IMG/VR virus record: IMGVR_UViG_3300014204_000123
Coordinates: 69,714-133,713 of that record
Length of the DNA stretch: 64,000 bases
Source: a virus
Lineage: Duplodnaviria; Caudoviricetes
Direction: 5' to 3' (one strand)
Below are positions 861 to 63,395 of the stretch, in pieces. A program made the position numbers and the translations under genes. The notes beneath the pieces were generated by a model. It was not told where the DNA came from. It was given only the letters and a program-made list of their open reading frames with translations, and made no database searches. How positions within the stretch are numbered: the stretch's first letter is position 1; each line of letters begins with the position of its first letter.

Positions 861-1201
861 GCGGGAAGTCTGTGGTTTTCACCTATTACGGGGGTGAGCC
901 TATCTTCAAAATGGGTCCGTACTGCGGTGAGCGGGCTTGCGACGTGGTAGTCGAAGACCCAGGGTATTTTCGTGAACTTCTTGCGCTGAGACTCCAGCCC
1001 GAAGACCGGGATTCTGTTCTCCAGGTCATGGAAAGGTCTGGGCTGGATTCGGCCGTTGACGATGGGTTTGACGGCGCAGTTGTGGCCGGGTCCGATGGTA
1101 AGTTTAGGGCTGTTGTCAATAGCAGGCCAAGGGATGATGTCGAGGTTCCAGTAGCGAGTGTCCATGATGTTCTCGGTGCCATTTTCGGAGGGTCGAAATG
1201 A
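854..1201 (+). CDS. hypothetical protein
   Basis: GGAGGG SD; ATGA overlap with the next gene. Confidence 0.65.
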   Translation: MVGGKSVVFTYYGGEPIFKMGPYCGERACDVVVEDPGYFRELLALRLQPEDRDSVLQVMERSGLDSAVDDGFDGAVVAGSDGKFRAVVNSRPRDDVEVPVASVHDVLGAIFGGSK

Positions 1202-1581
1202 AAGTTACGGCTGTTGGTGGCAAGGTTGCGATTGTGTTGGACGAGGAGCTAGAGCAAAAGCTCAGGCTGGAAGGCGAGGTCTCTATTGGTGAGGGTAAGA
1301 CGCTGTTCCTTGTCCGGGAGCAGAAAGGCACGATTCTGCCTCAGATGCGAGTCGGGAAAATCATAAGCGTTGGGAAGGGCATATGGAAAAAGGTCGACGG
1401 GTCCGACCGCTGGATACCAATGCCAGAATCCATCAAGGTCGGGATGACTGTCGGCATCCCTCCGTTTATGCTCGCCCCGTTTTTCATCGAGGGCGTGGGC
1501 AACGTCGTTATGGTTAATCCGCATTCTCTTATGGGGTTGGTGACCAGCCGTGAACGCCGATCAAATTCGGGAGTTGTGTGA
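1198..1581 (+). CDS. GroES/T4 gp31-like co-chaperonin
   Basis: GKIISVGKG...PMPESIKVGMTV...LMGLV matches the GroES fold pattern. Confidence 0.65.
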   Translation: MKVTAVGGKVAIVLDEELEQKLRLEGEVSIGEGKTLFLVREQKGTILPQMRVGKIISVGKGIWKKVDGSDRWIPMPESIKVGMTVGIPPFMLAPFFIEGVGNVVMVNPHSLMGLVTSRERRSNSGVV

Positions 1582-2623
1582 GCTGTTAGGTTCCGGTTGT
1601 TCGGACAGAAATGCCAACATGTATACGCACTGCCCGCTGTCGGAGTGGACTCACGATGCAGGGACAGACAATAGAGCCTCATTCAGTATCGGGGTCAGAG
1701 ACGATGGAGGGCACAGCCCATGCCGGTGTTGGTCGTGCGGTTTCAACGGCACTTTGTGGATGCTTGGTTCCGAGCTGGTTAAGCGGGACAACGTCAAATA
1801 CAGCCCGATCAACAGGTTCATTCGCCACATTGAGGACGGATGGGATAGTGGTTGCGGAGGGGTTTCCGTTTCTCCGATTGAGCGGAAGGCCGATAGGTCC
1901 ATAGAGGGGGACATCGCTGAATACCCTGACGAAAAGGTGATTCCAGAGCAGGACTACGCTGTATTTGCTGGCCGGGTTCCGATGTATGCGTTGGACCGAG
2001 GCTTGCGCCTGGAAACTTGCAAGGCCTGGGAGTTGGGGCATGATCAATGGCGGAAGCGGTTGCTGTTCCCTGCGCGGGATTATCGGGGCCGTCTGGTAGG
2101 GGTGTCGGGGAGGCTTTACACTCCAGGATGCCCACGTTGTCATAGGCTTCCTGGAGCCAAGAAGTATAGGTCTTGCCCGTCGTGCGGGTATTCGTTGGGG
2201 GAGAAGTACCTACACACGGATGGCTTCAAAAAGGAGTACGTCCTATATGGCGAGCACATGATCAACCGGGACTTGGACTATGGGATTGTGGTCGAGGGTC
2301 CTTTGGACGTTTTGAAGCTATGGCAGCATGGATTCGAGAACGTAGTCGGAGTGTTCGGTTCGGAGCCGAGCGTCAAGCAAATGCGGAAGCTGGTTCATTT
2401 CTTCAAGCGGGTTGTGGTGTTTATTGATGCCGACAAGGCGGGCAAGAAAATGGGCGAGAAGCTGGCTCAGCGATTGGTGCCTTTTCTGGAGGACTACCAT
2501 GTTGTTGGCGGGTACAAGAATGACGGCAAGGACCCGGCAGACAGGTCGTGTTTCGAGGTTATGGGGATGCTAAGTCAGGTGGGTATTGGCCCGACTAGGT
2601 CATTGGTTCGGGATTCCCCTTGA
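1550..2623 (+). CDS. DnaG-like DNA primase (Zn finger + TOPRIM)
   Basis: CP..H..D..ASF and CWSC Zn-binding domain; RLLFPARD..GRLVG.SGR; KYL; VEGPLD; FIDADKAG; KDPAD. Confidence 0.9.
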   Translation: MNADQIRELCELLGSGCSDRNANMYTHCPLSEWTHDAGTDNRASFSIGVRDDGGHSPCRCWSCGFNGTLWMLGSELVKRDNVKYSPINRFIRHIEDGWDSGCGGVSVSPIERKADRSIEGDIAEYPDEKVIPEQDYAVFAGRVPMYALDRGLRLETCKAWELGHDQWRKRLLFPARDYRGRLVGVSGRLYTPGCPRCHRLPGAKKYRSCPSCGYSLGEKYLHTDGFKKEYVLYGEHMINRDLDYGIVVEGPLDVLKLWQHGFENVVGVFGSEPSVKQMRKLVHFFKRVVVFIDADKAGKKMGEKLAQRLVPFLEDYHVVGGYKNDGKDPADRSCFEVMGMLSQVGIGPTRSLVRDSP

Positions 2624-2647
2624 CTTTGTCCGGGGCTGGATTATGCT
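2620..2647 (+). promoter_or_regulatory. sigma70-type promoter TTGACT-N16-TATGCT
   Basis: same -10 hexamer as the other copies; lies upstream of the SSB-like gene. Confidence 0.6.
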
Positions 2648-2684
2648 ACAACGGATGGTAGGCTTTTTCATCGGACGGGGGTTG

Positions 2685-3377
2685 ATGATGTGGTACAGGC
2701 GAGGGTTCGGGTATTTTGAGGAGTTCAATCGGTTGAAGTTGATGCAGGGACTCCAGCCTACTCGGTTTATGATCCGAAAGGACGAGAAGCGGGACGTTGT
2801 TTTCCTTGACGGCGGCGATGATGATGCTCCGTTCATGGTGGTCGAGCACAGAAAGAAAGTCGCCGGTGCCTGGACATATCCTGTGTGCCAGAATTCGGAT
2901 AAGTACCTATCGGGAGAGGCCGTAGACTTGCAGCCGTGCGTGGCGTGTGACGAGAACTCCGGTCGACATACGGTTGGTATGCTTAGCGTCATTGATATCG
3001 CCGGATATGAGCGAGACAAGAAAAAGTACCCAGGTCTTCGTCGGTTGTTTTGCGCCGATGAGGCTTGTTTGCGGACGCTGTCTGAGATTCGTGCTCAGTG
3101 TCCGGGTGGGAGCCTTACGGGTGCGGTGATTCGGGTCAATGATACAGCCGGGGAGTGGGGGAGTTGTGGCACGAGTTGGGAGTTGCTAAAGGTGCTTCCC
3201 AAGGACAAGTGGGATGCAGCGATCAAGAAAATGGGTTTTGACGTGTCCAAGAATCCCTGGCAGCCGTTTGACTACGCCAGCTTCGTGAAGCTTGTCCCGA
3301 ACGAAACCATGCGCTCTATTTGGGCTGGGAAGGTCACAGTCCCGGATGCGGGGGCCGATGAAGAGGTAAAATACTAA
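2685..3377 (+). CDS. putative gp32-like single-stranded DNA-binding protein
   Basis: aromatic/basic OB-type pattern (RF.IRKDEKR.VVFLD, H..C...CVAC), acidic C-terminus DAGADEEVKY; follows the primase. Confidence 0.55.
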   Translation: MMWYRRGFGYFEEFNRLKLMQGLQPTRFMIRKDEKRDVVFLDGGDDDAPFMVVEHRKKVAGAWTYPVCQNSDKYLSGEAVDLQPCVACDENSGRHTVGMLSVIDIAGYERDKKKYPGLRRLFCADEACLRTLSEIRAQCPGGSLTGAVIRVNDTAGEWGSCGTSWELLKVLPKDKWDAAIKKMGFDVSKNPWQPFDYASFVKLVPNETMRSIWAGKVTVPDAGADEEVKY

Positions 3378-3523
3378 TGCCTTTCGATCTCGACTCCAGG
3401 ATGGTTGCCATGGGCTTGGTCTTCATTGGACTACTGGCCGTGGGCCTTATTGGTGCTACGGTGATCGATGCCTTGTCCGTTATGGCCGACAGGTCGAAGA
3501 GGGGCAATAAATGGTACAAGTGA
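3377..3523 (+). CDS. small membrane protein (48 aa, below ORF-track cutoff)
   Basis: TAATG coupling; MPFDLDSRMVAMGLVFIGLLAVGLIGATVIDALSV...; fills the gap. Confidence 0.55.
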   Translation: MPFDLDSRMVAMGLVFIGLLAVGLIGATVIDALSVMADRSKRGNKWYK

Positions 3524-3801
3524 TTCAGGATGTCCCATTATGGTTTAAGATTTTCTTTGTCATGATGGCGGCTAGTTGTGTCGGGATTCTGTTTCTTTTG
3601 TTGCAGATTCAATTGGCCATATCAAGGCTGGCCGAAGGCATGATACTAATGAACAAAGAAAACAAAAATATGGCGAAGAGATTGGACGCTCTATGTGACG
3701 CATATATGATTGAGGAAGACGGTACGGTGCCATGCGTGATTCGTGCCGGTGAATCAAATTTGGACGATGAACAAGAGGGACGACGATGGAAGAGAAGGTA
3801 G
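3511..3801 (+). CDS. membrane protein with coiled coil
   Basis: N-terminal TM helix followed by a heptad segment. Confidence 0.6.
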   Translation: MVQVIQDVPLWFKIFFVMMAASCVGILFLLLQIQLAISRLAEGMILMNKENKNMAKRLDALCDAYMIEEDGTVPCVIRAGESNLDDEQEGRRWKRR

Positions 3802-4049
3802 TGAAGCCTAGAACGAGAACAGGCGGCGGGTCGATTGCTTGGGGCTATTTCCTGATTCAGGAGGATGGCAGCGAGGCATTCCACATGGTGGAGGGGGCGA
3901 CCAGCACCGAGGACGTGAAGGATATGATACGGAAAGAGATGCTGCAATTAGGCGCTAACTCTGTATTCTATAAAAACGTGGTGAAGATTTTTGCTATCAA
4001 GGCGGAAATCAAGCCTAACTTATCGTCTAAAGTGGTGGTGAAGCTATGA
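3786..4049 (+). CDS. hypothetical protein
   Basis: GAGGG SD, coupled overlaps. Confidence 0.65.
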   Translation: MEEKVVKPRTRTGGGSIAWGYFLIQEDGSEAFHMVEGATSTEDVKDMIRKEMLQLGANSVFYKNVVKIFAIKAEIKPNLSSKVVVKL

Positions 4050-4507
4050 GTTCGAGCTGGGTTCCGAAGGTTGGGGAGATGGTCTACGGCGTTTCCAGGG
4101 TAGAGTCTACTCGGCCACCTATGTATATGATCCATCATGGGGTGGTCCGGGAGTCCGACGCCAATGCTAGGATGGTGCACCTTGAAGATGGCCTTCCCGG
4201 CGGCAAGCTGATTATCTTGCTGATGAACAAGACATTCAGGACCAGGACTGCCGCGCTTGCGGATATCGTTGCGATGTCGGAGCAGGCCTTGTCTCGCTAC
4301 TGTGAGACCTCCATTGAGAAGCCTGGGAGCATTCCCGAGCATGTTATTGAAGCATGGAGGACCCAGGTCGAGATGGCCAAGGACGGGGCGGTGCCCATGA
4401 TTGGTGGTCTTATTGACCCAGGAACTGGGAAGCCTGTTTCGTTCCGCCAGCGTAAAATTCGGACCAGGAAGATGAAGCGGTCCAACTTTCTGACTGTCTG
4501 CAATTGA
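4046..4507 (+). CDS. hypothetical protein
   Basis: ATGA overlap; SH3/KOW-like start (PKVGEMVY). Confidence 0.65.
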   Translation: MSSSWVPKVGEMVYGVSRVESTRPPMYMIHHGVVRESDANARMVHLEDGLPGGKLIILLMNKTFRTRTAALADIVAMSEQALSRYCETSIEKPGSIPEHVIEAWRTQVEMAKDGAVPMIGGLIDPGTGKPVSFRQRKIRTRKMKRSNFLTVCN

Positions 4508-4512
4508 TTGCC
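4499..4512. promoter_or_regulatory. palindromic junction motif variant TGCAATTGATTGCC
   Basis: member of the dispersed TGCAATCGATTGCA family; directly before the SD of the helicase. Confidence 0.6.
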
Positions 4513-4523
4513 GGGGGGTCAGG

Positions 4524-6035
4524 ATGTCGGTAGCTCCTGTAAGGTTCAAGGATACGGAAGTGGTCATCGACCGTATGGCTTGGATTCCAAAGGCCTCATT
4601 GAGCGACCAGGACATGTTCCTTTTGCGAAGGGAGCTAGTCAAGACACCTATCAAGATGGCTGAGTTCGCCGGGATGGACGAGGACGAGAAGCCGGTGGTG
4701 CTATATGAGGAGCACGGCCGGTGGTTTGGAGTTCCCAGGGCGTATTATGAATCAGTCATGAGGTCCAAGTGTTCCGGCTTGACCGAGAAGCCGATGTTTT
4801 GCGAGACCCGATCGATTCCAGACAGCAGGATGGAGTTGAAGGGCATCAAGTTGGGCGGGACCTATTCAGAGCAAGCGGAGATGGTTCGGCAACTGTCCGA
4901 GTTTTTCAAGGGCGGGGGCATGGGAGGCATCTTCCGGGCCGACCCTGGATACGGCAAGACAGTGGTAGCGCTTCGGGTGATCTCAGAGTTGAAGGTTCCT
5001 ACGCTGGTTGTGGTCCACAAGGACTTCCTGCTCACGCAATGGATCAACCGAATCAGGAAGTACCTTCCCAACGCCAAGATCGGTCACATACAGCAAGACA
5101 AGGTGGTAGTGGAGGGCTGCGATATTGTGATAGCGATGCTCCAGTCGTTGTCTCAAAGGGAATATGATAGGTCTATTTACAGTGCGTTCGGGTTGGTGGT
5201 CATTGACGAGACGCACCGGCTGGGGGCCAGCTCGTGGGCTCCGGTCATTCGCAAGTTTAGGGGCCGCTGGCGACTTGGACTTACTGCTACGGCGAGGCGC
5301 AAGGATGGCATGGAGGACGTGTTCTTCTGGAACATAGGTCCGATCATTGTCTCTGCCAAGGTCAAGACCAAGCTTCCCAAGTTGAAGCGAATCAGGACGG
5401 CGAGCAAGTTGCCTCGTGCGGGCACGCTGGAGGGCAATGCTAGGGTATCGAAGACTGACAAGGAGCAGGCGAAGTCAGTCATGACACCTACGGTGTTGCG
5501 GCATATAGCGAGGGATACACAGAGGAACAAGGTCATTGTGGAGCAGATTTTCGAGGCTGCCACGAGTGAAAATCTGAGGAAGGTCATAGTGCTGAGTGAA
5601 CGAAAGGACTCGCATTTGCACCTTTTGAAAGACGACTTCGAGAAGTTCTGTGTGAAGAAAAAGGCGTCTGTGACCACTGGCTTCTACTACGGGGGGCTCT
5701 CCGAGCGGGAGCTGTTGGAGTCCGAGGGGAAACGGGTTCTGTTCTGTACTTACCAGATGGTGAGTGAGGCGCTGGACATAGAGTCCTTGGATACGTTGGT
5801 GCTGGCGACGCCAATTTCGGATGTAGAGCAGGCTGTTGGCAGAATTCGACGGCAGTGCACTCCTGATAGCGACAAGTGCGCCCGGTTATGTCCGTGGCGG
5901 GCCGGGGTGTGCAAGGGCAAGCCCGATCCGATCGTTGTGGACATCCTGGACCCGCTGATTGATCGGTGCGAGGCGAAGGCCAGATGGCGCATGATGTTCT
6001 ACCGGGAAGAGGGGATTATGGGCAAGCAGGCTTGA
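4524..6035 (+). CDS. superfamily 2 (UvsW/XPB-like) DNA helicase
   Basis: PGYGKT Walker A, IDETH Walker B, GLTATARRKDG, SEALDI, QAVGRIRR. Confidence 0.9.
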   Translation: MSVAPVRFKDTEVVIDRMAWIPKASLSDQDMFLLRRELVKTPIKMAEFAGMDEDEKPVVLYEEHGRWFGVPRAYYESVMRSKCSGLTEKPMFCETRSIPDSRMELKGIKLGGTYSEQAEMVRQLSEFFKGGGMGGIFRADPGYGKTVVALRVISELKVPTLVVVHKDFLLTQWINRIRKYLPNAKIGHIQQDKVVVEGCDIVIAMLQSLSQREYDRSIYSAFGLVVIDETHRLGASSWAPVIRKFRGRWRLGLTATARRKDGMEDVFFWNIGPIIVSAKVKTKLPKLKRIRTASKLPRAGTLEGNARVSKTDKEQAKSVMTPTVLRHIARDTQRNKVIVEQIFEAATSENLRKVIVLSERKDSHLHLLKDDFEKFCVKKKASVTTGFYYGGLSERELLESEGKRVLFCTYQMVSEALDIESLDTLVLATPISDVEQAVGRIRRQCTPDSDKCARLCPWRAGVCKGKPDPIVVDILDPLIDRCEAKARWRMMFYREEGIMGKQA

Positions 6036-6060
6036 CAGCGCTGGGCAAGCCGATTATGCT
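6032..6060 (+). promoter_or_regulatory. sigma70-type promoter TTGACA-N17-TATGCT
   Basis: consensus -35 and 17-bp spacer in an intergenic gap. Confidence 0.75.
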
Positions 6061-6069
6061 ACAATAGGT

Positions 6070-6381
6070 GTGGAGGTGCTCATGAGATCGATTAGGACTA
6101 GGAAGCCTTTGGAACTGGAGTTCCGAGGCAAGGCGTACACTGTGTTTTGGGTTGGAGACTTGGCCACTGAGGTTGGCCGGTCATCTAGGACGGTTGGCTG
6201 TTGGTGCAGGAGCGGGGTGCTTCCCGAGTCTCCATTCCGGTCACCACGGGGGGACAGGTACTTCACGTCGGAGATGATTGGGGTCATCAAGGCCGCTGTT
6301 GCCAAGTGTGGCGGGGCCAATTTGGATCTCCAGTCCTTTACCAAGGAGGTGAAGGAAGGCTGGGCGAAACTAGGTTACTGA
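6070..6381 (+). CDS. MerR-type helix-turn-helix DNA-binding protein
   Basis: VGDLATEVGRSSRTV..W...GVLP...R..RG.RYFT. Confidence 0.75.
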   Translation: MEVLMRSIRTRKPLELEFRGKAYTVFWVGDLATEVGRSSRTVGCWCRSGVLPESPFRSPRGDRYFTSEMIGVIKAAVAKCGGANLDLQSFTKEVKEGWAKLGY

Positions 6382-6411
6382 GCGGACTATATGAGACGAA
6401 GCACATGAGGT

Positions 6412-6978
6412 GTGGCATTGAAGAACAATCCTATTTTCTTTGAGTCGGTAGTTGTAACCAAGACAAACAGAGACAAAACCAAGACGGTAGAGTCTGCGGA
6501 AGACGGGTATGGTCGGCCTCCATTTCCGGCCCCTTCGTTTCCAACGGCGCACCTATTCGTGTCGATGGGCTTCACGAAGAACTTGCAGGATTTCCGAAGC
6601 AAGAAAGCCAATGTAGGCGTGAGTGTTCCGTTCGATGCCACTCGTCTGGACGAGGTGTGGGCGACTGTCAAACCGTGGGTCAGCCGTAGGCTCATGGAGC
6701 TGATCAATGGTAAGACTTCCACGGAAGAGCCGCTGGCGATTCTCCCGGTGGTGTTGGTGGATACGGTGCCCGCTTCCGATGTCGTTAGCGTTCCGGTGAG
6801 CTGCGGCCACACGGTACCGCTTGGCAACTTTGAGTTCGCATCAATAGAGATCGGCCTTACGCTGCTGTCGGACCCAGATAAGGTGGTTGACGCATACAAC
6901 TGGGGCGCTGCCTGGACAAAGGAAAAGGCGGATGATATTGCCGAAGGCGTAGAGCGGGCCAGGGCGAAAAAGAAGTAG
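6412..6978 (+). CDS. hypothetical phage protein with two internal repeats
   Basis: two similar halves (VSMGFTKNLQDF..ANVGVS / VSCGHTVPLGNF..IEIGLT). Confidence 0.65.
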   Translation: MALKNNPIFFESVVVTKTNRDKTKTVESAEDGYGRPPFPAPSFPTAHLFVSMGFTKNLQDFRSKKANVGVSVPFDATRLDEVWATVKPWVSRRLMELINGKTSTEEPLAILPVVLVDTVPASDVVSVPVSCGHTVPLGNFEFASIEIGLTLLSDPDKVVDAYNWGAAWTKEKADDIAEGVERARAKKK

Positions 6979-7003
6979 TCAACTCATTTCTACGGCGGGA
7001 CCT

Positions 7004-8416
7004 ATGGCAAAGAAAGAAAAGAAGTCGGATTCGGCAGAGGAGCAGTCTGGAGCCAGTAAGGTCCAGAGGTTTAGGCTTCGCCAGGATTCGCTATGCTCCA
7101 AGTATGGGTCGGGGACTTCCGTTATGGCGTCCGTGATCCCTGATACGCTGCGCATTTCTACGGGCTCATTCCGGTTAGATTATGCGTCGGGCGGTGGTGT
7201 CCCTGTTGGCCGAACTTCGCTGATTTGGGGCGGGGAGTCGTCTGGCAAAACTGGGATGGTTTTGCGTATTGGTGCACAAGCTCAGAAGTTGTGCGCCAAC
7301 TGCTATCGGATGCCGGTATTGGCCTCGTTGCTCAAGATGGACGATGATACGATCGTCTTGGGGGTCCCGGATGGCAATGGTGGGTTTATCGACTCCGAGA
7401 CCGGGCGTGAGGTTGTGGTTGCGAGTGTGGCTGGGGAACTCAGCAAGATCCAGTATTGCGACTGCTATTCCAAAGCGCTGTTTGTTCCCAAGCCTCTACC
7501 GGGTAACGGCGATAATGAGTTCGAGAAAGATGCCATTTTTCAGGCTAGGCTAGAAGGTTATAGCACAAACTCATATGAGGACGTTACGGTACACTATGTA
7601 AACATAGAGGGCGACCTTGACGTTGGCTGGGCCAGGAAGATAGGTATTGACACGAGCAGAATGGCGGTGACGGTTTGCGAGACCGGGGAAGAGGCTGTCG
7701 ATGTTGTCAAGTTTCTGATTGATTCTTGCGATAACGACGTGATCATCGTGGATTCTCTGGCGATGATGGTGCCCATGACTGAGGTCGAGGAGAGTGCCCA
7801 CGACGCTCATATGGGGTTACAGTCCAGGATGCTGAATCAGGCTATGCGGGTGTGGACTCAGGCCAGAGTAGCGGCAAAGAGGAAGCACGGCAGGGACATC
7901 ACGATTCTGCTCGTGAACCAATGGCGAATGAAGATTGACAGGTTCGGTGGAGGCCCGCAGTTAGTTGGGGGGCTTGGCCAGCGGTTTGTGGGGTCGTTCC
8001 AGGTGAAGTGTTGGTCAAAGAAGGGTGAGTCGTCTCAGATCGACGTTGGCAAAAAGGGATATGAGGTGGACGTTGCGGAAACGGCTACAACATGTTTCAA
8101 GGTGGAAAAGAACAAGACGTTTGGGTCCAAGGAAGTCGAGGGTGAGATTGAGTTCTTTGTCCGTGATTGCGAAGAGGGTAAGGCCGGTGAGGTTCGGGAG
8201 TTCGATTACATATGGACTTTGGCGAAATACTTCGGGATCGTTTTCAAGCAGGAAAAGCCCATAAAGTGGATAATGAATGGGAAGGTGTTTGATACCGAAA
8301 CGGCGGCCAAGGCAGCGGTCAGAACGGACCCGGAGGTTATGGCTGGGCTTCGTTCGACGTTAATGACGTTGCTCCTGGGTCAGATCAAGAAAGAGATGCT
8401 GGGGGGCAAGCGATGA
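7004..8416 (+). CDS. recA: RecA/UvsX-like recombinase with ~100-aa Cys-containing insertion
   Basis: ISTGSFRLD...GGVPVGR, GGESSGKT, IIVDSLA, MGLQSRMLNQAMR, LVNQWRMKI, VEKNKT. Confidence 0.9.
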   Translation: MAKKEKKSDSAEEQSGASKVQRFRLRQDSLCSKYGSGTSVMASVIPDTLRISTGSFRLDYASGGGVPVGRTSLIWGGESSGKTGMVLRIGAQAQKLCANCYRMPVLASLLKMDDDTIVLGVPDGNGGFIDSETGREVVVASVAGELSKIQYCDCYSKALFVPKPLPGNGDNEFEKDAIFQARLEGYSTNSYEDVTVHYVNIEGDLDVGWARKIGIDTSRMAVTVCETGEEAVDVVKFLIDSCDNDVIIVDSLAMMVPMTEVEESAHDAHMGLQSRMLNQAMRVWTQARVAAKRKHGRDITILLVNQWRMKIDRFGGGPQLVGGLGQRFVGSFQVKCWSKKGESSQIDVGKKGYEVDVAETATTCFKVEKNKTFGSKEVEGEIEFFVRDCEEGKAGEVREFDYIWTLAKYFGIVFKQEKPIKWIMNGKVFDTETAAKAAVRTDPEVMAGLRSTLMTLLLGQIKKEMLGGKR

Positions 8417-54186: not shown

Positions 54187-54193
54187 TTCTCCG

Positions 54194-54221: not shown

Positions 54222-54244
54222 AGGGTTGTCAGGGAGGAGACCCC

Positions 54245-54630: not shown

Positions 54631-54680
54631 ATGTCCGTGGTTGGCGGTTGTGCCAGCCCGAACGGCCATGGAGCGACGGC

Positions 54681-54968: not shown

Positions 54969-54986
54969 CGTCTAACTGTCAGGGGA

Positions 54987-55265: not shown

Positions 55266-55266
55266 G

Positions 55267-55485: not shown

Positions 55486-55495
55486 TTTAGGGGGT

Positions 55496-55699: not shown

Positions 55700-55893
55700 C
55701 AAAGCAAGAGTTCTTGAACCAAGAGACAAAGGCCTTGATTAGCTTCGAGACCAAGGACTACTATGAGCACAGGGACTCGCCCTCCGTGCTGTCCAGAAGC
55801 TACGCCTGCGAGTGCGGCTATACGTGTCGCACCCCGAACGAGATCTACTCCCATGCCTTGGAATGTGAAGAGGGAACAGATGAAACAAGATAG
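55696..55893 (+). CDS. small Zn-finger-like protein
   Basis: CECG...H...C. Confidence 0.55.
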   Translation: MTKQEFLNQETKALISFETKDYYEHRDSPSVLSRSYACECGYTCRTPNEIYSHALECEEGTDETR

Positions 55894-56347: not shown

Positions 56348-56671
56348 GTGCAGAGCATTTATAGAGTGGTGAGGTCGGGAAGGAATGTGGACGTTGACGA
56401 TCGCCTTCTCCAACGAGGGGGAACGTTTATGCGGGATAGCAATCCCAAGCGGGCGATTCTGACTTGGGCAAGGCGAACATTCGCCAGACGCCTGTGGAAG
56501 CGCGAGGGGGAACAGATCGCTGCATGGATCGTTTCCCCATGTGGTAGGGTCAGGTTTGCGGTGGTGAAGATCTCCGGTTTCGCCAAGAATCGGGCAGTGC
56601 TTGAATTGGTGGTGTTTGAACGCCGTCGTGACCGTGACGGACCGGAGCAAAACTTAGGGGGCAGGAGATGA
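56348..56671 (+). CDS. basic hypothetical protein
   Basis: GGAG SD; fills the gap. Confidence 0.5.
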   Translation: MQSIYRVVRSGRNVDVDDRLLQRGGTFMRDSNPKRAILTWARRTFARRLWKREGEQIAAWIVSPCGRVRFAVVKISGFAKNRAVLELVVFERRRDRDGPEQNLGGRR

Positions 56672-57156
56672 CGGTAAGAGAAATTCTGGGCGACCAAATA
56701 GAGTTGTTCAGGCTGTCTTATGGCCTTCCAGAGGTCAAAGAGTGGATTAGGTCAAAGGATTATCTGGCCATCCGGTTTGAAGATGCTGGCTATGTGGAGC
56801 ACCCGGAGCGCATACGTGTTTGGCTTCGTGGCAAAGGGTGTGCGGATGTTTCCACAACCGAAGAGGCTATCACTTGGCTTGCCGACCGGGGCTTGGATAT
56901 CAGGAGTGAGCCAGAGCGACAGGGTTTGCCCAAGCCCGATGAGCGGATACGGGGCAACGTTACAGTCATGTGGATTTGGAATACCCAGGTGGGGCGGTTG
57001 GAGTTCTGGAGGCGCCCCAGGCAGGGCACATGGCAGGTATTGCTTTCTCCTCTTTGCAATTTCGCCAAGGCTATCGATTTGGAGTTCAAGACTCAGCAAG
57101 AGGCGATAGATATGGTGGGTCGGATTCTAGGAGTTCGGACGCCAGACTCTGAATAG
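56668..57156 (+). CDS. hypothetical protein
   Basis: ATGA overlap; SD. Confidence 0.6.
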   Translation: MTVREILGDQIELFRLSYGLPEVKEWIRSKDYLAIRFEDAGYVEHPERIRVWLRGKGCADVSTTEEAITWLADRGLDIRSEPERQGLPKPDERIRGNVTVMWIWNTQVGRLEFWRRPRQGTWQVLLSPLCNFAKAIDLEFKTQQEAIDMVGRILGVRTPDSE

Positions 57157-57157
57157 G

Positions 57158-57171
57158 TGCAATCGATTGCA
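57158..57171. promoter_or_regulatory. perfect palindrome TGCAATCGATTGCA
   Basis: between stop 57156 and SD; 20-bp context identical to 48782-48801. Confidence 0.7.
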
Positions 57172-57185
57172 GATAGGGGGAGAAA

Positions 57186-57599
57186 ATGGTTGACGAGACT
57201 TGCGAAGTCGGGCGACGGACCGGGAAGCGCGATGCGTGGTTGATTGAGACATTGGTGGAGGGCATTGGAGAACCTGGGTACCGGCTGATCATCATGTGCG
57301 GGGACCGGGTCCCTCTTCTCGTCGACGGAGCGCCACCTACGGCTACTCTTCGTGAGATCGTTACCGGGTACGTCCCGCCGTTTTCCAAGTATTGGGTCAT
57401 GGTTGGCGGGCACCGATTCAGCGTGGAGTACAGGGGAGAGTCCCCTTGTTCGGTCGGCCGTGGCGGTGACCTATTCATTTTTTCATACAGAGGTCCTGGC
57501 CTGACTGGGGTCAATATGTGGGAGGTTGCGACCGAGGCCGCTAGGTCTGGGGCTTGGAGGCTAGTCGAGAAAGAGGAAGAGATGGAACGGGAGATTTAG
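57186..57599 (+). CDS. hypothetical protein
   Basis: GGGGGAG SD. Confidence 0.6.
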   Translation: MVDETCEVGRRTGKRDAWLIETLVEGIGEPGYRLIIMCGDRVPLLVDGAPPTATLREIVTGYVPPFSKYWVMVGGHRFSVEYRGESPCSVGRGGDLFIFSYRGPGLTGVNMWEVATEAARSGAWRLVEKEEEMEREI

Positions 57600-57617
57600 C
57601 GCCTTTCATTTTCCCTC

Positions 57618-57646
57618 TTGACAACGTTCAAGACTAGGCTTATGTT
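57618..57646 (+). promoter_or_regulatory. sigma70-type promoter TTGACA-N17-TATGTT
   Basis: intergenic; consensus -35. Confidence 0.7.
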
Positions 57647-57678
57647 GCTTGTGAGGCCGATGGACGGCCTAAGAGGAA

Positions 57679-57888
57679 ATGGGAATGTGGGATGATATCG
57701 TCTACCTAGCGGCTATGATTTGGGTCCCCTTGGGGCTTCCTGCGGCCGGAGCCGGGGTGGTTCTGACCCATTCGTGGTTTATGTCCGGTTCGCTGGGTTT
57801 GGGGACCTTGGGGGTGATCCTGGTTTTTGCCCTGTTCGTTCTGTATTACATGGCGCTAGAAGCCATGTTTGGCCACAAGCACAACTAG
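57679..57888 (+). CDS. small two-TM membrane protein
   Basis: two hydrophobic helices. Confidence 0.6.
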   Translation: MGMWDDIVYLAAMIWVPLGLPAAGAGVVLTHSWFMSGSLGLGTLGVILVFALFVLYYMALEAMFGHKHN

Positions 57889-57897
57889 GGGGCCTAA

Positions 57898-58515
57898 ATG
57901 TTGGTTTATAAACTGACCGATGCCGATGGGCGAACCAGCGACGGGTATCAATGGGAATTAGGGGTAACCAGTGTTGTAAATGGGAAGGGGGATTTGCGTG
58001 GTCCTGGTTGGTTTCGTTGGCATAATTCGCCGGAGGTAGAGGTATTAATGGGCGGGATGCTAGGTCATTCTTCCCCATTGTCCATGAGGTTGTTCGAGGC
58101 AGAAGCGGGTGGCGAAGTATGTCGTGATGATTACTACAACATTGAGGGATTCAGTACGGAATTGACGTTAGTTCGAGAGATAGTGCCGCCAGTGATAACG
58201 GTAGAGCAGAGGGAAAAGATCGCCATTTTGTGTGCAAAGAAAGTATGCAATAATGCCCGATGGCTATCGTGGGCTGAGTTTTGGCTATCAGGGGAAGATC
58301 GAAGTGAGGAATCGGCTTATGCTACCATGAGGGCGGTGGTGCTTAAAGTGAATACTTCTGCGTTGGTGGCTGTGCAGATGGTTGCATCGGTGAGCGATGT
58401 AACAGAAGGGACGGGAGTAGCAATGAGGTTCGCTGCCTTGGAATCATGGGGAGATTTGATGGAAGATCTCCAGTCTATCATTAGTTCGGTATTGGGGGAG
58501 AGCCATGAGTTGTAG
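57898..58515 (+). CDS. conserved phage hypothetical protein
   Basis: YKLTD..G.T...YQW..G ... TLVREI ... WA..WLSGEDRS. Confidence 0.65.
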   Translation: MLVYKLTDADGRTSDGYQWELGVTSVVNGKGDLRGPGWFRWHNSPEVEVLMGGMLGHSSPLSMRLFEAEAGGEVCRDDYYNIEGFSTELTLVREIVPPVITVEQREKIAILCAKKVCNNARWLSWAEFWLSGEDRSEESAYATMRAVVLKVNTSALVAVQMVASVSDVTEGTGVAMRFAALESWGDLMEDLQSIISSVLGESHEL

Positions 58516-58735
58516 GCATAAATGGGTCTACCCGTATCAAGTAGTAGGGGGCCTGCTGGAAAACCCAGGGTGCTGGGATGCTGGAAATGGGGCTATGATG
58601 ACAAAGGCCGTTTGCTCCAAGTGTGGGAAGTATCGTGTGGAGATTCGGAGCTACTGCGGGGAGCGGGACGGCGACAAGAGAGTTACGTTCCGCCCGGCGG
58701 ATAAGGTCTCTTTGGAGTGGCTGTGGAGGGAATGA
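58505..58735 (+). CDS. small Zn-ribbon protein
   Basis: C.HKW...GG..ENPG...CSKCG. Confidence 0.6.
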   Translation: MSCRHKWVYPYQVVGGLLENPGCWDAGNGAMMTKAVCSKCGKYRVEIRSYCGERDGDKRVTFRPADKVSLEWLWRE

Positions 58736-58736
58736 T

Positions 58737-59201
58737 ATGGTGAAGGTTTTGATGTGGATAGGGGCTGTAACTCTCTTGTTCGCAGGGGCTGCATTGTGGT
58801 ACTTGGCTGCCACCGTGACAGCGGAGCAGGCTTGGACTGGGATTGCCCTGTATTTGTGGGCTGTAGCTTGCGTGCTTTTGTGGATGGTTTTTGTGCTAGG
58901 GGTGTCGTGTGGTCTTCCTTCCCGAAAAGAGAAGCAGGGGAGCCAGCCTGTACCGGCCTCTTCGCTTGTGGTTCCTGAGCCAATGCCGATTCGCAACGGT
59001 GGTGTTTCGGTGTGGGATCTGGTTATCTCGGATATGAAGGGCCGGGACGAGTTTGGCAGGCGCAAATACGGGACTCCGCTCCAAGTCAATAATGGGCGAG
59101 ATCCATTGGTTGATGCTTACCAAGAGGCTCTTGACCTTGTCGTTTACTTGCGACAGGCGATAGAACGAAGGACAACGGTTGACAAGTCTAGGAGAAAGTA
59201 G
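58737..59201 (+). CDS. two-TM protein fused to a MazG-like NTP-pyrophosphatase-type helix pair
   Basis: DM..RD..G..KYGT.L...NGRD.L.DAYQEALDLVVYL. Confidence 0.55.
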   Translation: MVKVLMWIGAVTLLFAGAALWYLAATVTAEQAWTGIALYLWAVACVLLWMVFVLGVSCGLPSRKEKQGSQPVPASSLVVPEPMPIRNGGVSVWDLVISDMKGRDEFGRRKYGTPLQVNNGRDPLVDAYQEALDLVVYLRQAIERRTTVDKSRRK

Positions 59202-59203
59202 AG

Positions 59204-59578
59204 ATGGAGAAGAGGAAGATAGATACAGAGTGCCAGCGGCTTGTTTGTGCGCTGAATCTTATCCCTGGTATTGAGACTCTGTCCTCTTGCTGCGGTCATG
59301 GGTCGCATGAGTTCTACGTGTTCTTCTGCATAAGCGGGACCGGGGGCCTCGACTTCCTTGTGAGCACTCTGGGGTCTAATAACATGGACTGGAGCGTCCA
59401 GGTGTACTTTGGGAACAGGAAGTCCAATGGTGATGGGACCATGTTCTATCTGGCCACGACCTCGGTTGGCGACGAGGCGTATGCTGCTGCCGATTCGTTG
59501 GCTACGGCCCTCCGGGATCGGATACTGGGTAGTTATTGGGTAATAGAGGGAGTCCCCGTCAAGATAGTGGAGGACTGA
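59204..59578 (+). CDS. TYW3/Taw3-like fold protein
   Basis: ID.....LV.ALN.IPGIETLSSCCGH. Confidence 0.5.
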   Translation: MEKRKIDTECQRLVCALNLIPGIETLSSCCGHGSHEFYVFFCISGTGGLDFLVSTLGSNNMDWSVQVYFGNRKSNGDGTMFYLATTSVGDEAYAAADSLATALRDRILGSYWVIEGVPVKIVED

Positions 59579-59580
59579 GC

Positions 59581-59784
59581 ATGGGAGGACTGAGGCCTAA
59601 GCGTTGTGAGCTGTGCTCTTTTTGGGATGGCCGTGTGCTTGTAGACGGGTCACGTCTTTTCGATACTGCGGTATGTTGGTCCGATGGCAAGGTAACGGGA
59701 TATGGCAATTGCTGTGATGGCTTCTATCCAAGGTCAAGAGCTGTTAGATCCCTGGATGGTTACAACTTGGGGGGTTGCAAATGA
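59581..59784 (+). CDS. small Cys-rich protein
   Basis: C..C.FW...C...CC. Confidence 0.5.
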   Translation: MGGLRPKRCELCSFWDGRVLVDGSRLFDTAVCWSDGKVTGYGNCCDGFYPRSRAVRSLDGYNLGGCK

Positions 59785-60077
59785 GATCGCTTCCAGAAGA
59801 CGGGCAGTTCCAACGTAGTGAATGGACGGGGGAATACTGCCCCAAGTGCGGGATGGAAACCATACAAGTTACGTGCTCGGGCTGTGAACATCAGTTTGAG
59901 TATTGCGAGGAGTGTGGTTGGACGCCGGAAGATGTCGAGACGGAGGCGAAGAAAAGGCTACAGGAGCAAGTAAAGCGGTTGACAGAGTATATCGCCAAGT
60001 CATGTTCCCCGGCTTGTGTCCCCGGCAGAGATATCCTGTGTGACGGGTGCCCCATTCCCTCGATTCACAAGGAGTAG
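59781..60077 (+). CDS. Zn-ribbon protein
   Basis: CPKC, CSGC, CEEC. Confidence 0.55.
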   Translation: MRSLPEDGQFQRSEWTGEYCPKCGMETIQVTCSGCEHQFEYCEECGWTPEDVETEAKKRLQEQVKRLTEYIAKSCSPACVPGRDILCDGCPIPSIHKE

Positions 60078-60081
60078 CACC

Positions 60082-60651
60082 ATGTTAGGTGAAGAGGTTG
60101 GGGAACAAGCTCGGTGTGCGGCATGTTTCAGGGCTGGGGACAAGGCCAAGATGGCGAAGCCTGCTTCAACCGCGGCTGGGAGTCAGTATTGGTTCTGCGA
60201 TGCTACGTGTTATGGCGCATGGTTCTCATCTCCGTCGCGGTTGTTGTCGCGTGTGGACTCATTGGTTCCCCTGGAATTATCGGTTGCCCAGGATAAGGAT
60301 GCTCGGACGGCGGCGGTAGAAAACAGGTTGCGATCTCATATAGGTGAAGCCTTCGACGCGGCAAGGAAGGCCAAGGGCCTCAGTATCCGGGCATTGGCGA
60401 AAGAGATGGGGACTTCCATTTCCCAGGTCCAGCGGATGCTCCACGAGGATATAGGTGGCGGCCTTACGCTTAGAACGCTGGTCAGGGGAGCGGATGTTCT
60501 AGGGCTGTCTGTTTCGTTCCATCTTGAACCACAGGAACAGGCTTACGCAAGAGACGCACTGGAGTCCCTTAAGCGGTGGGAAGGCAAGCTCTTGTCTTCG
60601 ATGATGCTGCCGCACGAGTTGCTGGAGGAGAAGCCCCATGGGGAAAGATGA
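60082..60651 (+). CDS. XRE-family HTH regulator with N-terminal TRASH/YHS-like Cys domain
   Basis: CAAC...YWFCDATC; ARKAKGLSIRALAKEMGTSISQVQRM...LTLRTL....VLG. Confidence 0.75.
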   Translation: MLGEEVGEQARCAACFRAGDKAKMAKPASTAAGSQYWFCDATCYGAWFSSPSRLLSRVDSLVPLELSVAQDKDARTAAVENRLRSHIGEAFDAARKAKGLSIRALAKEMGTSISQVQRMLHEDIGGGLTLRTLVRGADVLGLSVSFHLEPQEQAYARDALESLKRWEGKLLSSMMLPHELLEEKPHGER

Positions 60652-60946
60652 CATTGGTTCATTCATTCGCCAGCCGCTTTCTAGCCTGGAGGTTGTTAGG
60701 GGCCATGTGTCCGATGATGACTTTTGGTCCATGTGGACGGCACAGTTTGGGGATGCCACAGGTGCCGTTCGAGGTATCCTGCACAGGCGTTATGCCCGGT
60801 GGGTATTCGGCAAGGGGAAGGTTATGAATCTGGTCTTTCTGGACGAGAATGCCCGCGGAGCTTTCCCGGTGACGGTTGGCCCTGGACATCGCCTTATCTA
60901 TGCCCATTTGGCTGTGAACAGGTGGCTGGACGGTCTAGGTCTTTGA
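60638..60946 (+). CDS. hypothetical protein
   Basis: GGAGGAG SD. Confidence 0.5.
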   Translation: MGKDDIGSFIRQPLSSLEVVRGHVSDDDFWSMWTAQFGDATGAVRGILHRRYARWVFGKGKVMNLVFLDENARGAFPVTVGPGHRLIYAHLAVNRWLDGLGL

Positions 60947-60963
60947 GTTGACGGGGGTGCCGC

Positions 60964-61233
60964 ATGATATGCAGAAAGAAGAACTCAATGATAGAGGCAG
61001 AAGAGATCACGCCGGAGGTTTTCGAGCCCGGCTATGTTCCTGTTGGCCTGTTTGCTGCAAAAGAGGTTGAAAAGTTAGTGCCCGAAGTAGGCGGCGGCAG
61101 GGTTTGGATTCGGGGGAGTTATGGGCTGGGGTCGGTGACGGTAGGTGATTTCCTGGTAAGGTTTGATGATGGTACGATTGATGGATACTGCCGGGATGCT
61201 TTCTGGGACAGGTTTGAGTTTGTCAGCGAATGA
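60964..61233 (+). CDS. conserved phage hypothetical protein
   Basis: RKK..IEA...V.VGDFLV...G..Y..D.F...FE.V. Confidence 0.6.
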   Translation: MICRKKNSMIEAEEITPEVFEPGYVPVGLFAAKEVEKLVPEVGGGRVWIRGSYGLGSVTVGDFLVRFDDGTIDGYCRDAFWDRFEFVSE

Positions 61234-61242
61234 GGTGGTCTG

Positions 61243-61845
61243 TTGAAGAGCTATTCATTGATTTGGGTACTGAGGCCGCATCTTCACAAGATGCCGAAGG
61301 CGATATTGAGATACTTGTGGTATGTCGTCCGGCATAAGTGGTGGGTTGTGGTTGCCGGGGTGGTCCTCATGCGTCGGGGGAAGGTCCGTTTGTCCGAGGC
61401 GCTGCCGTTTGTCTGGAGGCTGTTGGTCCATGACTTATCGAAGCTGAGACCATCGGAGCTGTTTTCATATGCGGCCTACTTCCACACCAATATCAGGTCT
61501 GTGGAGTGCGGTAGACTGAGGGCAGAGTTTGGGCTGCCGGAAAGGGCTCCGCAGGGGGCTTGCTTGAAGGACCACTTCAATAGGTCATGGCTCAAGCACC
61601 AAAGAAGGAACGATCACCACTGGCAGTATTGGCTTCTCAAAGAGGATGGCGGCGGGGCGGCTTCCCCGTTACCAGTGCCAAGGGTAGCGGTGCTGGAGAT
61701 GGTTGCAGATTGGATGGGAGCGGGCCGGGCCATTGCAGGGAAGTGGGAGGTCAAGGATTGGTACTATCGGAACCGATTAGTGATTGATCTGCATCACGAG
61801 ACTCGGGCCTTGCTTGATGGATGGATGAGAGCGTTCGGCAATTGA
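61243..61845 (+). CDS. HD-like domain protein (DUF5662-like)
   Basis: RHK, HDLSK, H..RNDHHWQYW, EMVADW.GA. Confidence 0.75.
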   Translation: MKSYSLIWVLRPHLHKMPKAILRYLWYVVRHKWWVVVAGVVLMRRGKVRLSEALPFVWRLLVHDLSKLRPSELFSYAAYFHTNIRSVECGRLRAEFGLPERAPQGACLKDHFNRSWLKHQRRNDHHWQYWLLKEDGGGAASPLPVPRVAVLEMVADWMGAGRAIAGKWEVKDWYYRNRLVIDLHHETRALLDGWMRAFGN

Positions 61846-61850
61846 TTGCA
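61837..61850. promoter_or_regulatory. palindromic junction motif variant GGCAATTGATTGCA
   Basis: overlaps stop 61845; 15 bp identical to 30341-30355. Confidence 0.6.
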
Positions 61851-61869
61851 GGGGACCAATGGAGGGTTT

Positions 61870-62100
61870 ATGGGTACTGTAGATATTTGTTTTGCTTTGG
61901 AATGTTCTGGCTGTGGGAAGCCGCTGGAGGGTAGATTTCTGGGGAGGAGTATGGCTGGGGGAAGTATGGTTTTGGAAGTTGACGTATGCGAGAGCTGTCT
62001 TCTTGACGCCGAGAAGGAAGCGGAAAATCGGATATGGAGGTTGACCAATGAGAGTTATCAAGAGCCTGTTGAAGGGGAAGAGCATCATAGCGAGGCATGA
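61870..62100 (+). CDS. small Zn-binding protein
   Basis: CSGCG...CESC; GGAGGG SD. Confidence 0.55.
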   Translation: MGTVDICFALECSGCGKPLEGRFLGRSMAGGSMVLEVDVCESCLLDAEKEAENRIWRLTNESYQEPVEGEEHHSEA

Positions 62101-62344
62101 GCCCATACAGTTGCATCCGTGGGATCATCCTGGGATCGGTAAGATCGTCGTCAATTGGTACTGCGGGGGATATTCAGAGCGAGGGCGTTACCTTGGTCAA
62201 GAGGGAGAACTTCCTGAGTGCGGGAACGAGTTCACGACGGTAGAGGACATAGAAGACTGGCTGGAGGACCATTGCAGTACGGAGTGCCCTGACTGTGGAA
62301 GGGTATTGTTGCAAAACCCAGACGCCAGTAGTTGTTGCCATTAG
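62048..62344 (+). CDS. Zn-ribbon protein
   Basis: C...ECG..F...CPDCG; GGAGG SD. Confidence 0.55.
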   Translation: MRVIKSLLKGKSIIARHEPIQLHPWDHPGIGKIVVNWYCGGYSERGRYLGQEGELPECGNEFTTVEDIEDWLEDHCSTECPDCGRVLLQNPDASSCCH

Positions 62345-62823
62345 CTACAACCGGCAATGGTGCCGGAGAGCCCGCACTGGCCATGCGGAATAGAATGCTT
62401 GAATGCTTATACAAAGACAATGCCCGGTCTGGCCAACCGGGCAATTTTAGGGAGTCGATAATGATGGCCCGGACGATATTGGAGGCGAAGCAGACGGCAG
62501 CTAGAATGGCCAGAGAATATGCGGGAGAGTGCATACTTAGATGCAGGCCCCTCTGCCCTGAGTTCGCAACCAAGTCGGGGCCTTACGATGCCATTTATGA
62601 GGCTGCAAGGTTGCGCTTCAATGAGGACATACTGGAGGAGATAGAAACACGCCACGGGATCAGCCTGCTGCGGGCGATGGAGGAGCGGGAGGCGTGGGAA
62701 TGGGCATATGACAACGCACCTATGCTTGGCTGGCCGCCCAGGATCATTGTATTGGTGGGCCGTTGCGAGCGGGTTGAACTGCGGAGAAGCGAGCCCTTCG
62801 TTTACTCCTTTGACCAGCCCTAA
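62332..62823 (+). CDS. hypothetical protein (start uncertain)
   Basis: fills the gap. Confidence 0.5.
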   Translation: MLPLATTGNGAGEPALAMRNRMLECLYKDNARSGQPGNFRESIMMARTILEAKQTAARMAREYAGECILRCRPLCPEFATKSGPYDAIYEAARLRFNEDILEEIETRHGISLLRAMEEREAWEWAYDNAPMLGWPPRIIVLVGRCERVELRRSEPFVYSFDQP

Positions 62824-62867
62824 TCCCAGCATTTGGACTGCCTGATTTTTCTTGCATCATTTCCCCC

Positions 62868-62896
62868 TTGACATACCCGTCGCTCCGGCTTATGCT
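62868..62896 (+). promoter_or_regulatory. sigma70-type promoter TTGACA-N17-TATGCT
   Basis: intergenic; T-rich upstream element. Confidence 0.75.
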
Positions 62897-62918
62897 TTTA
62901 TTGAGACGGAGGGAAGCA

Positions 62919-63158
62919 ATGAGCCGGTGGATGATCATGGACGACGAGAATCGGATGCTTTGCGTCGGTGGTTGGACTAGCATTCAGGCTTGTGCGCTAG
63001 CCTATCCCACGAAGGAATCTGCTCCGGTAGAGATTGTTCGTCCTGGGACGTTGGGCGAATATATCCTATCCAGAAGTCGGGACGGGATTGAGTTTCGTGG
63101 CATACAGAACGCAACAGGCCGGATCTGCCCGGTCGAAGCAATCTTGGTGGAGGTCTAA
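62919..63158 (+). CDS. hypothetical protein
   Basis: GGAGGG SD before ATG 62919. Confidence 0.55.
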   Translation: MSRWMIMDDENRMLCVGGWTSIQACALAYPTKESAPVEIVRPGTLGEYILSRSRDGIEFRGIQNATGRICPVEAILVEV

Positions 63159-63395
63159 ATGCTTGATTCTAATTCGACTTTGATTGTTATTGCGGTGGGG
63201 AGGAGGCTTACCCTTTGGTCTAACGGGTTATCATACCCGTGCGTTGTGGAGCATGTAGGAACTCGGGAATTCCGGTGCAAGATAGGTCAGAATGAACGAG
63301 GTAGGCTCTACCCCGGAGGGAATAGATTCAGTTTGAAGACGGGTCGCCCTATAGGGGGCCATTTTGACGGTGCGTTTACGGAGGTGAATGGATGA
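63159..63395 (+). CDS. small beta-barrel protein similar to 42886..43425
   Basis: shared FSL.TG..IG motif. Confidence 0.55.
   Translation: MLDSNSTLIVIAVGRRLTLWSNGLSYPCVVEHVGTREFRCKIGQNERGRLYPGGNRFSLKTGRPIGGHFDGAFTEVNG

Follow-up and report, generated by a model that had tools for sequence, protein, structure and literature searches.

Why does one six-base word, ACCTAT or its reverse complement ATAGGT, recur so often on both strands of a Caudoviricetes phage genome? The genome is the 133,713-bp IMG/VR record IMGVR_UViG_3300014204_000123 (hereafter G000), and the stretch analysed, called the window, is its last 64 kb (positions 69714–133713; positions below are those of the window unless genome positions are named). 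We found that the excess arises at the level of the DNA, that its density is kept in a related phage while the individual sites turn over, and that the copies keep their distance from one another whichever way they face. The reading that we favor, with a probability of about 0.4, is that ACCTAT is an orientation-independent duplex recognition word, selected for coverage, that a phage-encoded protein binds or modifies, and that one array of copies serves for nucleation or control.

A DNA-level excess of ACCTAT/ATAGGT

A hand tally in an earlier note had put the copies on the + strand of the window at about 65–70 ACCTAT and 45–50 ATAGGT; the exact count is 68 and 48, and each example position given there is a true site. 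These 116 dispersed copies lie between positions 881 and 63287, in both orientations, in all reading frames of the + strand genes and also in intergenic DNA. The whole genome holds 205 (108 ACCTAT and 97 ATAGGT on the + strand). For the + strand of the window, the expected numbers of ACCTAT and ATAGGT are 8.2 and 17.9 at Markov order 0, 10.0 and 10.8 at order 2, and 19.2 and 17.1 at order 3; at the maximal order (4), they rise to 51.6 and 31.0, and the excess still stands at z = 5.2 and 5.0. When both strands of G000 are counted, the word is the top over-represented hexamer under every model (205 copies compared with 47.5 expected at order 2), and an expectation conditioned on 5-mers reaches 130.6 (z = 11.1).

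Could codon usage or the encoded dipeptides account for the excess? Synonymous-codon shuffles, which leave non-coding sites untouched and count the intergenic copies in the expectations, predict 39.9 copies in the window (21.0 + 18.8) compared with the 116 observed (z = 15). In the whole genome, shuffling within genes, across the genome or with codon plus next base kept predicts 75, 68 and 80 copies, respectively, compared with 205 (z = 21–24), and the excess remains at z = 20.7 in a shuffle of the last kind. Under the Markov models and the codon-preserving shuffles alike, the ratio of observed to expected copies is not near 1. In the coding DNA of G000, ACCTAT occurs 94 times compared with 19.3 expected (4.9-fold) and ATAGGT 70 times compared with 22.5 (3.1-fold), in every available frame; frame 2 is closed to ATAGGT because TAG lies inside it. 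In G000, 41 of the 66 Thr-Tyr pairs (62%) are written ACC-TAT, with 8.7 expected, and all seven alternatives, including ACC-TAC, are depleted. Similarly, ATA-GGT makes up 41 of the 183 Ile-Gly pairs, with 8.7 expected, at the expense of its synonymous alternatives. Altogether, the word is present in 167 of the 585 peptide contexts of G000 that could hold it synonymously. These results indicate that the signal belongs to the DNA, as the earlier note had proposed, and that it is not a dipeptide or codon-usage effect.

A test for longer or gapped forms of the word had also been suggested. We observed a mild preference for C or G at position −1 (CACCTAT, 88 compared with 27.6 expected; GACCTAT, 66 compared with 23.6, in G000) and no specificity at −2, +1 or +2; the best form is therefore SACCTAT, where S is C or G. 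The density is uneven along the window, as had been noticed before. The part from 1 to 54186, with the replication, recombination and T4-like structural genes, holds 108 sites (~2 per kb), the enrichment being 3.9-fold in replication genes and 4.4-fold in structural genes. The accessory tail from 54187 to 64000 holds 8 sites, of which 5 are coding compared with 1.8 expected by synonymous shuffle; enrichment is 2.8-fold beyond 54.2 kb compared with 4.4-fold before it.

Some copies occupy particular places. The overlap with two copies of a palindrome (ATAGGTGCAATCGATTGC at 48782 and 57153) is real in both cases: on the + strand, ATAGGT is fused to the dispersed palindrome TGCAATCGATTGC at 48782–48799 and again at 57153–57170, the latter copy preceding a gene start by 33 nt. 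In five genes of the window, ACCTATG (at 7000, 10800, 22401, 31397 and 33458) lies over the start codon as ACCT-ATG, and at 6064, 18498, 23139, 26202 and 34673, ATAGGT(G) lies 6–20 nt upstream of a start, in the ribosome-binding region. Several intergenic copies of the window are found right at gene starts.

Lineage specificity, spacing and the conserved array

Is the word a property of this genome alone? The syntenic relative IMGVR_UViG_3300014204_000124 (G001; 129.6 kb, from a municipal landfill metagenome), whose orthologous proteins have a median identity of 47% with those of G000, carries 160 copies compared with 68.8 expected (z = 22.9), and ACCTAT is again its top hexamer. A third contig (L103), with a major capsid protein (MCP) 84% identical to that of G001, has 13 copies compared with 2.2 expected, and the word is its top hexamer under the order-2 model. 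The MCPs of these two word-bearing relatives are 70–71% identical to that of G000. The sister contig L017 (MCP 66%) shows no excess (3 compared with 3.4 expected), and ~60 relatives with MCPs 44–50% identical show none either. The phage has 2.8 times as many copies of ACCTAT as of its reversed control; across 401 bacterial genomes, all from a single phylum, this ratio, read by eye, is ~0.2–1.5.

Furthermore, the lineage does not keep the sites in place. Only 13 of the 104 alignable sites (12%) occupy the same position in G000 and G001, compared with a background of 4.8%, and this modest positional excess could come from a shared codon-pair preference; copies within an array described below are conserved between the two. 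The enrichment is 4.4-fold in core genes and 3.0-fold in those that have no G001 ortholog. Density is thus kept while individual sites turn over. A second word, ACCAAT/ATTGGT (best form CACCAAT), is ~2.3-fold enriched on both strands of G000 and G001 and is the top hexamer under the order-2 model in L017, the contig without the ACCTAT excess. Its regional distribution is unlike that of ACCTAT, of whose signal it may be a weaker variant.

The arrangement of the sites was then compared with chance. Orientation along the genome is random (runs test, P = 0.41 in G000 and P = 0.09 in G001), and neither end clustering nor an orientation domain was seen. With both strands taken together, gaps reach 4.5 kb, and their coefficient of variation (CV) is ~1; on each strand, the spacing is ~1.2–1.4 kb and gaps reach 7–9 kb, again with a CV of ~1. 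The pair-distance histogram of ACCTAT shows no regular periodicity. At short range, on the other hand, the sites are too sparse. Outside the array, gaps below 100 bp number 9 compared with 27.9 expected in G000 and 7 compared with 16.9 in G001, and gaps below 200 bp in G001 are fewer than for all 206 control hexamers. When realised sites were drawn at random from the accessible contexts, 18.3 gaps below 100 bp were expected compared with 7 found (P = 0.002; P = 0.0003 with a block-wise null). Pooled over four genomes, same-orientation pairs within 100, 200 and 300 bp occur at 0.13, 0.47 and 0.60 of expectation, and opposite-orientation pairs at 0.46, 0.53 and 0.57. Because the exclusion spans both orientations, copies of either orientation substitute for one another. 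Such spacing agrees with a duplex-level, orientation-free function with diminishing returns, and it is at odds with both strand-specific signals and an independent mutational drive.

The array is the exception to this mutual exclusion. Outside the window, at genome positions 13315–13493, G000 carries 5 copies in 180 bp, and G001 carries 8 copies in 275 bp (23246–23519). The two arrays are homologous and adjoin an identical 21-mer, two copies of the word lie within conserved blocks, and inverted pairs such as CACCTAT-ACG-ATAGGTG are found among the copies. The array is located 60–240 bp upstream of an early-type promoter (TTGACA-17-TATGCT). In 500 random placements, the biggest cluster averaged 4.4 copies and never exceeded 7. 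Whatever reads the dispersed copies probably also uses the array, as its main site of control or nucleation.

The conserved non-coding element as a whole (genome 13250–13650 in G000 and 23180–23660 in G001) comprises the array, the 21-mer ACTCCGGGACCCCCCACCCCC and several C runs, which are G runs on the other strand, and it ends at the early-type promoter. No Rfam family was found in the array regions, and the array strand folds no better than its shuffles (z = −0.6). Among viral and metagenome contigs, a conserved 19-mer beside the array has a genuine match only in G001; ten other metagenome matches are to unrelated DNA, nine of them of high GC, without the motif.

Does the phenomenon recur in this phage group with other words? 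Four distant relatives, G411, G412, G413 and G414 (the records of L027, L059, L090 and L062, respectively; MCP ~46–48%), contain AAACTC 36, 65, 70 and 13 times compared with 4, 18, 12 and 3 for its reversed control. The enrichment of AAACTC/GAGTTT in these genomes is 4–9-fold, in all frames and both orientations. In G413, there is one gap below 200 bp compared with 12.9 expected, the modal spacing being 390–550 bp, and G411 shows a similar short-range exclusion. The near-complete relatives G407 and G409 have no such enriched word. We considered AAACTC as a by-product of AGCT avoidance and rejected this, as AGCT is not avoided in those relatives. The phenomenon thus recurs within the group with different words.

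A candidate reader and the rival explanations

What could read such a word? In the reading that we favor, the lineage would keep ACCTAT, in its best form SACCTAT, at ~1.5 copies per kb in either orientation, with selection acting on coverage and not on particular sites. A sequence-specific protein, more likely encoded by the phage than by its host, would bind or modify the word, and its effect would be orientation-free and reach over ~100–300 bp, so that a second copy nearby would add little. The array upstream of the early-type promoter would then be the place where this reader chiefly nucleates or exerts control, and the phage would in this way have its own DNA marked or organised. Of the three functions that the earlier note had proposed, the one that agrees best with the data is a site bound by a genome-organising protein, given the enrichment on both strands, the random orientation, the exclusion and the array; its Chi-like and methylation-biased repair proposals are disfavored, as discussed below. 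A bolder joint claim, which we put forward only tentatively, is that ACCTAT here and AAACTC in another subclade are lineage-specific, asymmetric 'self words' read on duplex DNA by a phage-encoded protein for self/host discrimination or genome organisation. Such a word would fill about one quarter of the codon pairs able to hold it, at ~1–1.5 copies per kb and mutually spaced, and would be a phage counterpart of the cyanobacterial word HIP1 or of Chi that changes as lineages diverge.

The sole named candidate for the reader is a putative N6-adenine methyltransferase of the Dam family (PF05869, E = 3e-27), encoded at genome positions 61760–62362, outside the window. G000 and G001 share this conserved gene, which did not turn up in five distant relatives that show no enrichment, including two with a completeness of at least 90%. 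Only G000 has a second methyltransferase (PF01555), and the matches to the G000-only N6_N4 methyltransferase, in a host search of one genome per species, are at most 47% identical and scattered over phyla. We found no paper that links ACCTAT with a methyltransferase. A phyletic comparison with G001, G411–G413, G407 and G409 revealed no gene common to the enriched genomes only, except for a doubtful 92-aa protein; the primase, helicases and recombinase are shared with non-enriched relatives, and most early proteins belong to no family.

Several points weigh against the coverage reading. The association of the Dam-family gene with the word is a single evolutionary event, and an asymmetric word of 6–7 bp is not what small Dam-type methyltransferases usually recognise, their targets being GATC or loosely defined. 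From the ~50 genes that only G000 and G001 have, the phyletic comparison singled out no reader, and the reader may also be encoded by the host. There is no evident reason why a binding or modification site should merit the recoding of more than a quarter of the accessible codon pairs. Coverage is not tightly enforced, as the 4.5-kb gaps and the CV of ~1 show, and G412 is enriched in AAACTC without the short-range exclusion.

Could the word instead be a Chi-like signal? It would then be read in single-stranded form by a helicase–nuclease of the RecBCD/AddAB type, from the host or the phage, which it switches from degradation to recombination, and dense copies facing both ways would shield, at either end, a genome that is circularly permuted and headful-packaged. 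Some phages are rich in host Chi (PMC12315714). The word is short, asymmetric and enriched genome-wide, accessory genes included; random ends would require both orientations, and the end repeats of G000 and G001 suggest permuted or circular assemblies; and the variation of Chi words by host lineage would account for the lineage specificity. However, sites in opposite orientations exclude one another nearly as strongly as those in the same one, and strand-specific signals could not substitute for each other in this way. Moreover, there is no orientation bias (108 versus 97 copies, with runs tests not significant and no end clustering), the per-strand gaps reach 7–9 kb (CV ~1), and none of the 401 sampled bacterial genomes, all of one phylum, is enriched. 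Known Chi words are also G-rich. The phage encodes its own RecA-like recombinase, Holliday junction resolvase and PD-(D/E)XK exonuclease, whereas the Chi-rich lambdoid phages are those without recombination modules, and their sites are one-oriented and end-clustered (PMC12315714). A Chi-like role is therefore unlikely. About as unlikely is a footprint of the HIP1 kind, in which the word, as the target of the Dam-family or a host methyltransferase, would be replenished by biased repair or gene conversion and not by functional selection. HIP1 itself offers the precedent of a hyper-abundant word tied to orphan methyltransferases (PMC4390886; PMC5861425). An orphan Dam-family gene is present in G000 and G001 and was not found in the five non-enriched relatives, and the lower enrichment of accessory genes (3.0-fold compared with 4.4-fold in the core) is what amelioration predicts. 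Asymmetric 6-mers, too, are typical methyltransferase targets. On the other hand, N6-adenine methylation makes no deamination mismatch, and the single-substitution neighbours of the word stand at 0.67–1.3 of expectation if ACCAAT, an enriched word in its own right, is left aside, a pattern that differs from that of very-short-patch repair. Even the deamination products are not specially depleted (ACTTAT at 0.69 and ATCTAT at 0.89 of expectation), and no neighbour has been specifically drained. In addition, the realised sites repel one another relative to their opportunities, which an independent mutational drive does not predict, and HIP1 is now argued to be maintained by selection (PMC5861425). 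Methylation as such, apart from biased repair, may nonetheless be linked to the word.

A primase initiation site is very unlikely. If the DnaG-like primase needed the template 5'-ATAGGT(S)-3' and its primers began with pppACC, start sites would be enriched on both strands. The phage does have its own replisome of the DnaB/DnaC/DnaG type, the per-strand spacing of ~1.2–1.4 kb is on the scale of Okazaki fragments, and the word starts with a purine, with S preferred just before it, which resembles phage T7, where the template (G/T)GGTC gives ACCC/ACCA primers after a cryptic base. But known primases specify about three bases, per-strand gaps of 7–9 kb are tolerated, copies on opposite strands exclude one another (0.46–0.57 of expectation within 100–300 bp) although they are unable to serve the same template, and relatives with a homologous primase have no enriched word. 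Finally, the excess might compensate for words that the phage avoids, such as CACCCA, CACCAG, CTAG or restriction sites, or might reflect a codon-pair effect. G000 does avoid dozens of words very strongly, and its shortfall in CACCCA and CACCAG is about as large as its surplus of CACCTA and CACCAA. Nevertheless, G001, which does not avoid CACCCA and CACCAG, has the same ACCTAT excess (z = 22.9). The excess requires the final T and follows G as well as C, both reverse-complement forms are raised in all frames, all seven Thr-Tyr alternatives are depleted, and the shuffle that keeps codon plus next base, which controls for CTAG avoidance, leaves z at 20.7. The by-product explanation is thus close to refuted. 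The probability not taken up by the coverage reading and these four rivals belongs to mechanisms that we have not thought of.

The phage, comparable systems and significance

What kind of phage carries the word? G000 has a GC content of 54.5%, with G exceeding C by ~20% on the + strand throughout (skew ~0.2, with no switch point). All 203 genes called with a codon model are on the + strand and cover 88% of the genome; no tRNA genes were found in G000. A T4-like structural set (Gp23 capsid, Gp20 portal, prohead protease and sheath) is accompanied by a bacterial-type replisome (SSB, a clamp-like processivity factor, a DnaC-like loader, a DnaB-like helicase and a DnaG-like primase) and by a recombination set consisting of a RecA-like recombinase, a Holliday junction resolvase and a Cas4-type (PD-(D/E)XK) exonuclease. 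The head and tail module of the T4 type is thus paired with a replisome of the bacterial type and not with T4-type replication proteins (window 1–12200; genome 46–70 kb). The DnaG-like primase (Toprim, DNAG_N; 1550–2623, + strand), the gene in question for the primase-site explanation, has homologues in all the relatives compared, word-enriched or not. That the phage has a RecA/UvsX-like recombinase (7004–8416, + strand) speaks against a reliance on host Chi. In the G000 proteins that were scanned, we saw no DNA polymerase. A megablast search with 24 kb returned no match to a cultured phage, and the MCP is at most 31% identical to that of any cultured phage. The G000 record has a 123-bp end repeat. 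The positions of the end repeats are not homologous between G000 and G001, which suggests circular or permuted assemblies, and the repeats may be assembly overlaps of such genomes.

The genome also avoids many words. In G000, the 6-bp palindromes GGATCC, CTGCAG, TTCGAA, CTCGAG, CCTAGG and CACGTG are all absent, and GCCGGC occurs 6 times compared with ~105 expected; strong avoidance extends to CGCG (z = −27), CTAG, TGCA and GATC. The palindrome avoidance of G001 is much like that of G000, which suggests hosts rich in restriction systems. The opposite of the absence of CTCGAG in G000 is seen in L062 (IMGVR_UViG_3300017963_000992), where this palindrome occurs 53 times in 16.6 kb, ~2 times the synonymous-shuffle expectation (z = 8.7). 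Asymmetric words are avoided as well in G000: CACCCA (11 compared with 70 expected), CACCAG (18 compared with 62), CTGAAG (26 compared with 85), GTCCCA, CCTCTC and ATACGA. CACCCA and CACCAG are near expectation in G001 (74 compared with 88.6 and 56 compared with 64.2), and the type IIS/IIG-like enzymes that confront the two phages seem to differ. Shine–Dalgarno-like words are depleted within G000 genes relative to synonymous shuffles (AAGGAG 49 of 106 expected, AGGAGG 64 of 117 and TAAGGA 14 of 61).

How does ACCTAT compare with the words that are known? Its nearest known analogue is HIP1 (PMC5861425), and the nearest precedent in phages is Chi enrichment (PMC12315714). HIP1 (GCGATCGC, in cyanobacteria) is also a hyper-abundant short word, at roughly one copy per kb within and between genes, which peptide or RNA function does not explain and which is linked to orphan methyltransferases (PMC4390886; PMC5861425). 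It is argued to be kept by selection, with a non-random distribution tied to chromosome structure (PMC5861425; PMC4390886). However, HIP1 is an 8-bp palindrome of cellular genomes, 15–300-fold enriched and positionally conserved, whereas the phage word is an asymmetric hexamer, 3–5-fold enriched, with 12% of its sites positionally conserved; the non-randomness of the phage word is an exclusion over 100–300 bp, and that of HIP1 is a periodicity of 10–90 kb. Chi sites, including those of the Chi-rich phages LLS, MD8 and P1, are short, asymmetric, over-represented and lineage-variable like ACCTAT, and they are thought to mark DNA as 'own' for a nuclease. Chi acts in one orientation; in phages, its sites show a strand bias (e.g., 20 versus 3), cluster toward one end and go with the lack of a phage recombination module or anti-RecBCD function (PMC12315714). 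The word of G000, by contrast, is randomly oriented without end clustering, excludes across orientations and occurs in a phage with its own recombinase.

Two further classes of words resemble ACCTAT in part. The DNA uptake sequences (DUS) of Neisseria and the uptake signal sequences (USS) of Haemophilus also occur about once per kb, with coding copies where the protein tolerates them and with turnover of copies. They are longer (9–12 bp), however, and are driven by uptake bias in competent bacteria; to our knowledge, no transmission bias equivalent to it exists for phages, and the mutual exclusion of the phage sites argues for selection and not drive. Chromosome organisers (Noc, SlmA, MatP, ParB/parS and DnaA boxes) share a sequence-specific duplex binder, orientation independence and dispersed sites together with a dense cluster in a control region. 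On the other hand, their sites are of 9–16 bp, number tens per megabase-scale genome and do not reshape codon choice genome-wide, and we know of no phage with ~200 six-base organiser sites.

Behind hyper-abundant words such as Chi, the uptake sequences, HIP1 and KOPS, a DNA-handling machine has come to light in each case, and we know of no word in a phage of the lytic type that is at once orientation-free, asymmetric, lineage-specific and mutually spaced. The case of G000 illustrates how far a signal in the DNA can take precedence over codon choice, with one codon pair used in 62% of the Thr-Tyr pairs. If a phage protein does read the word, a virus lacking modified bases would have a novel means of marking or organising its own DNA. 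The word would then also be a constraint to respect when phage genomes are recoded, and it would provide a simple sequence signature for grouping uncultured phages.

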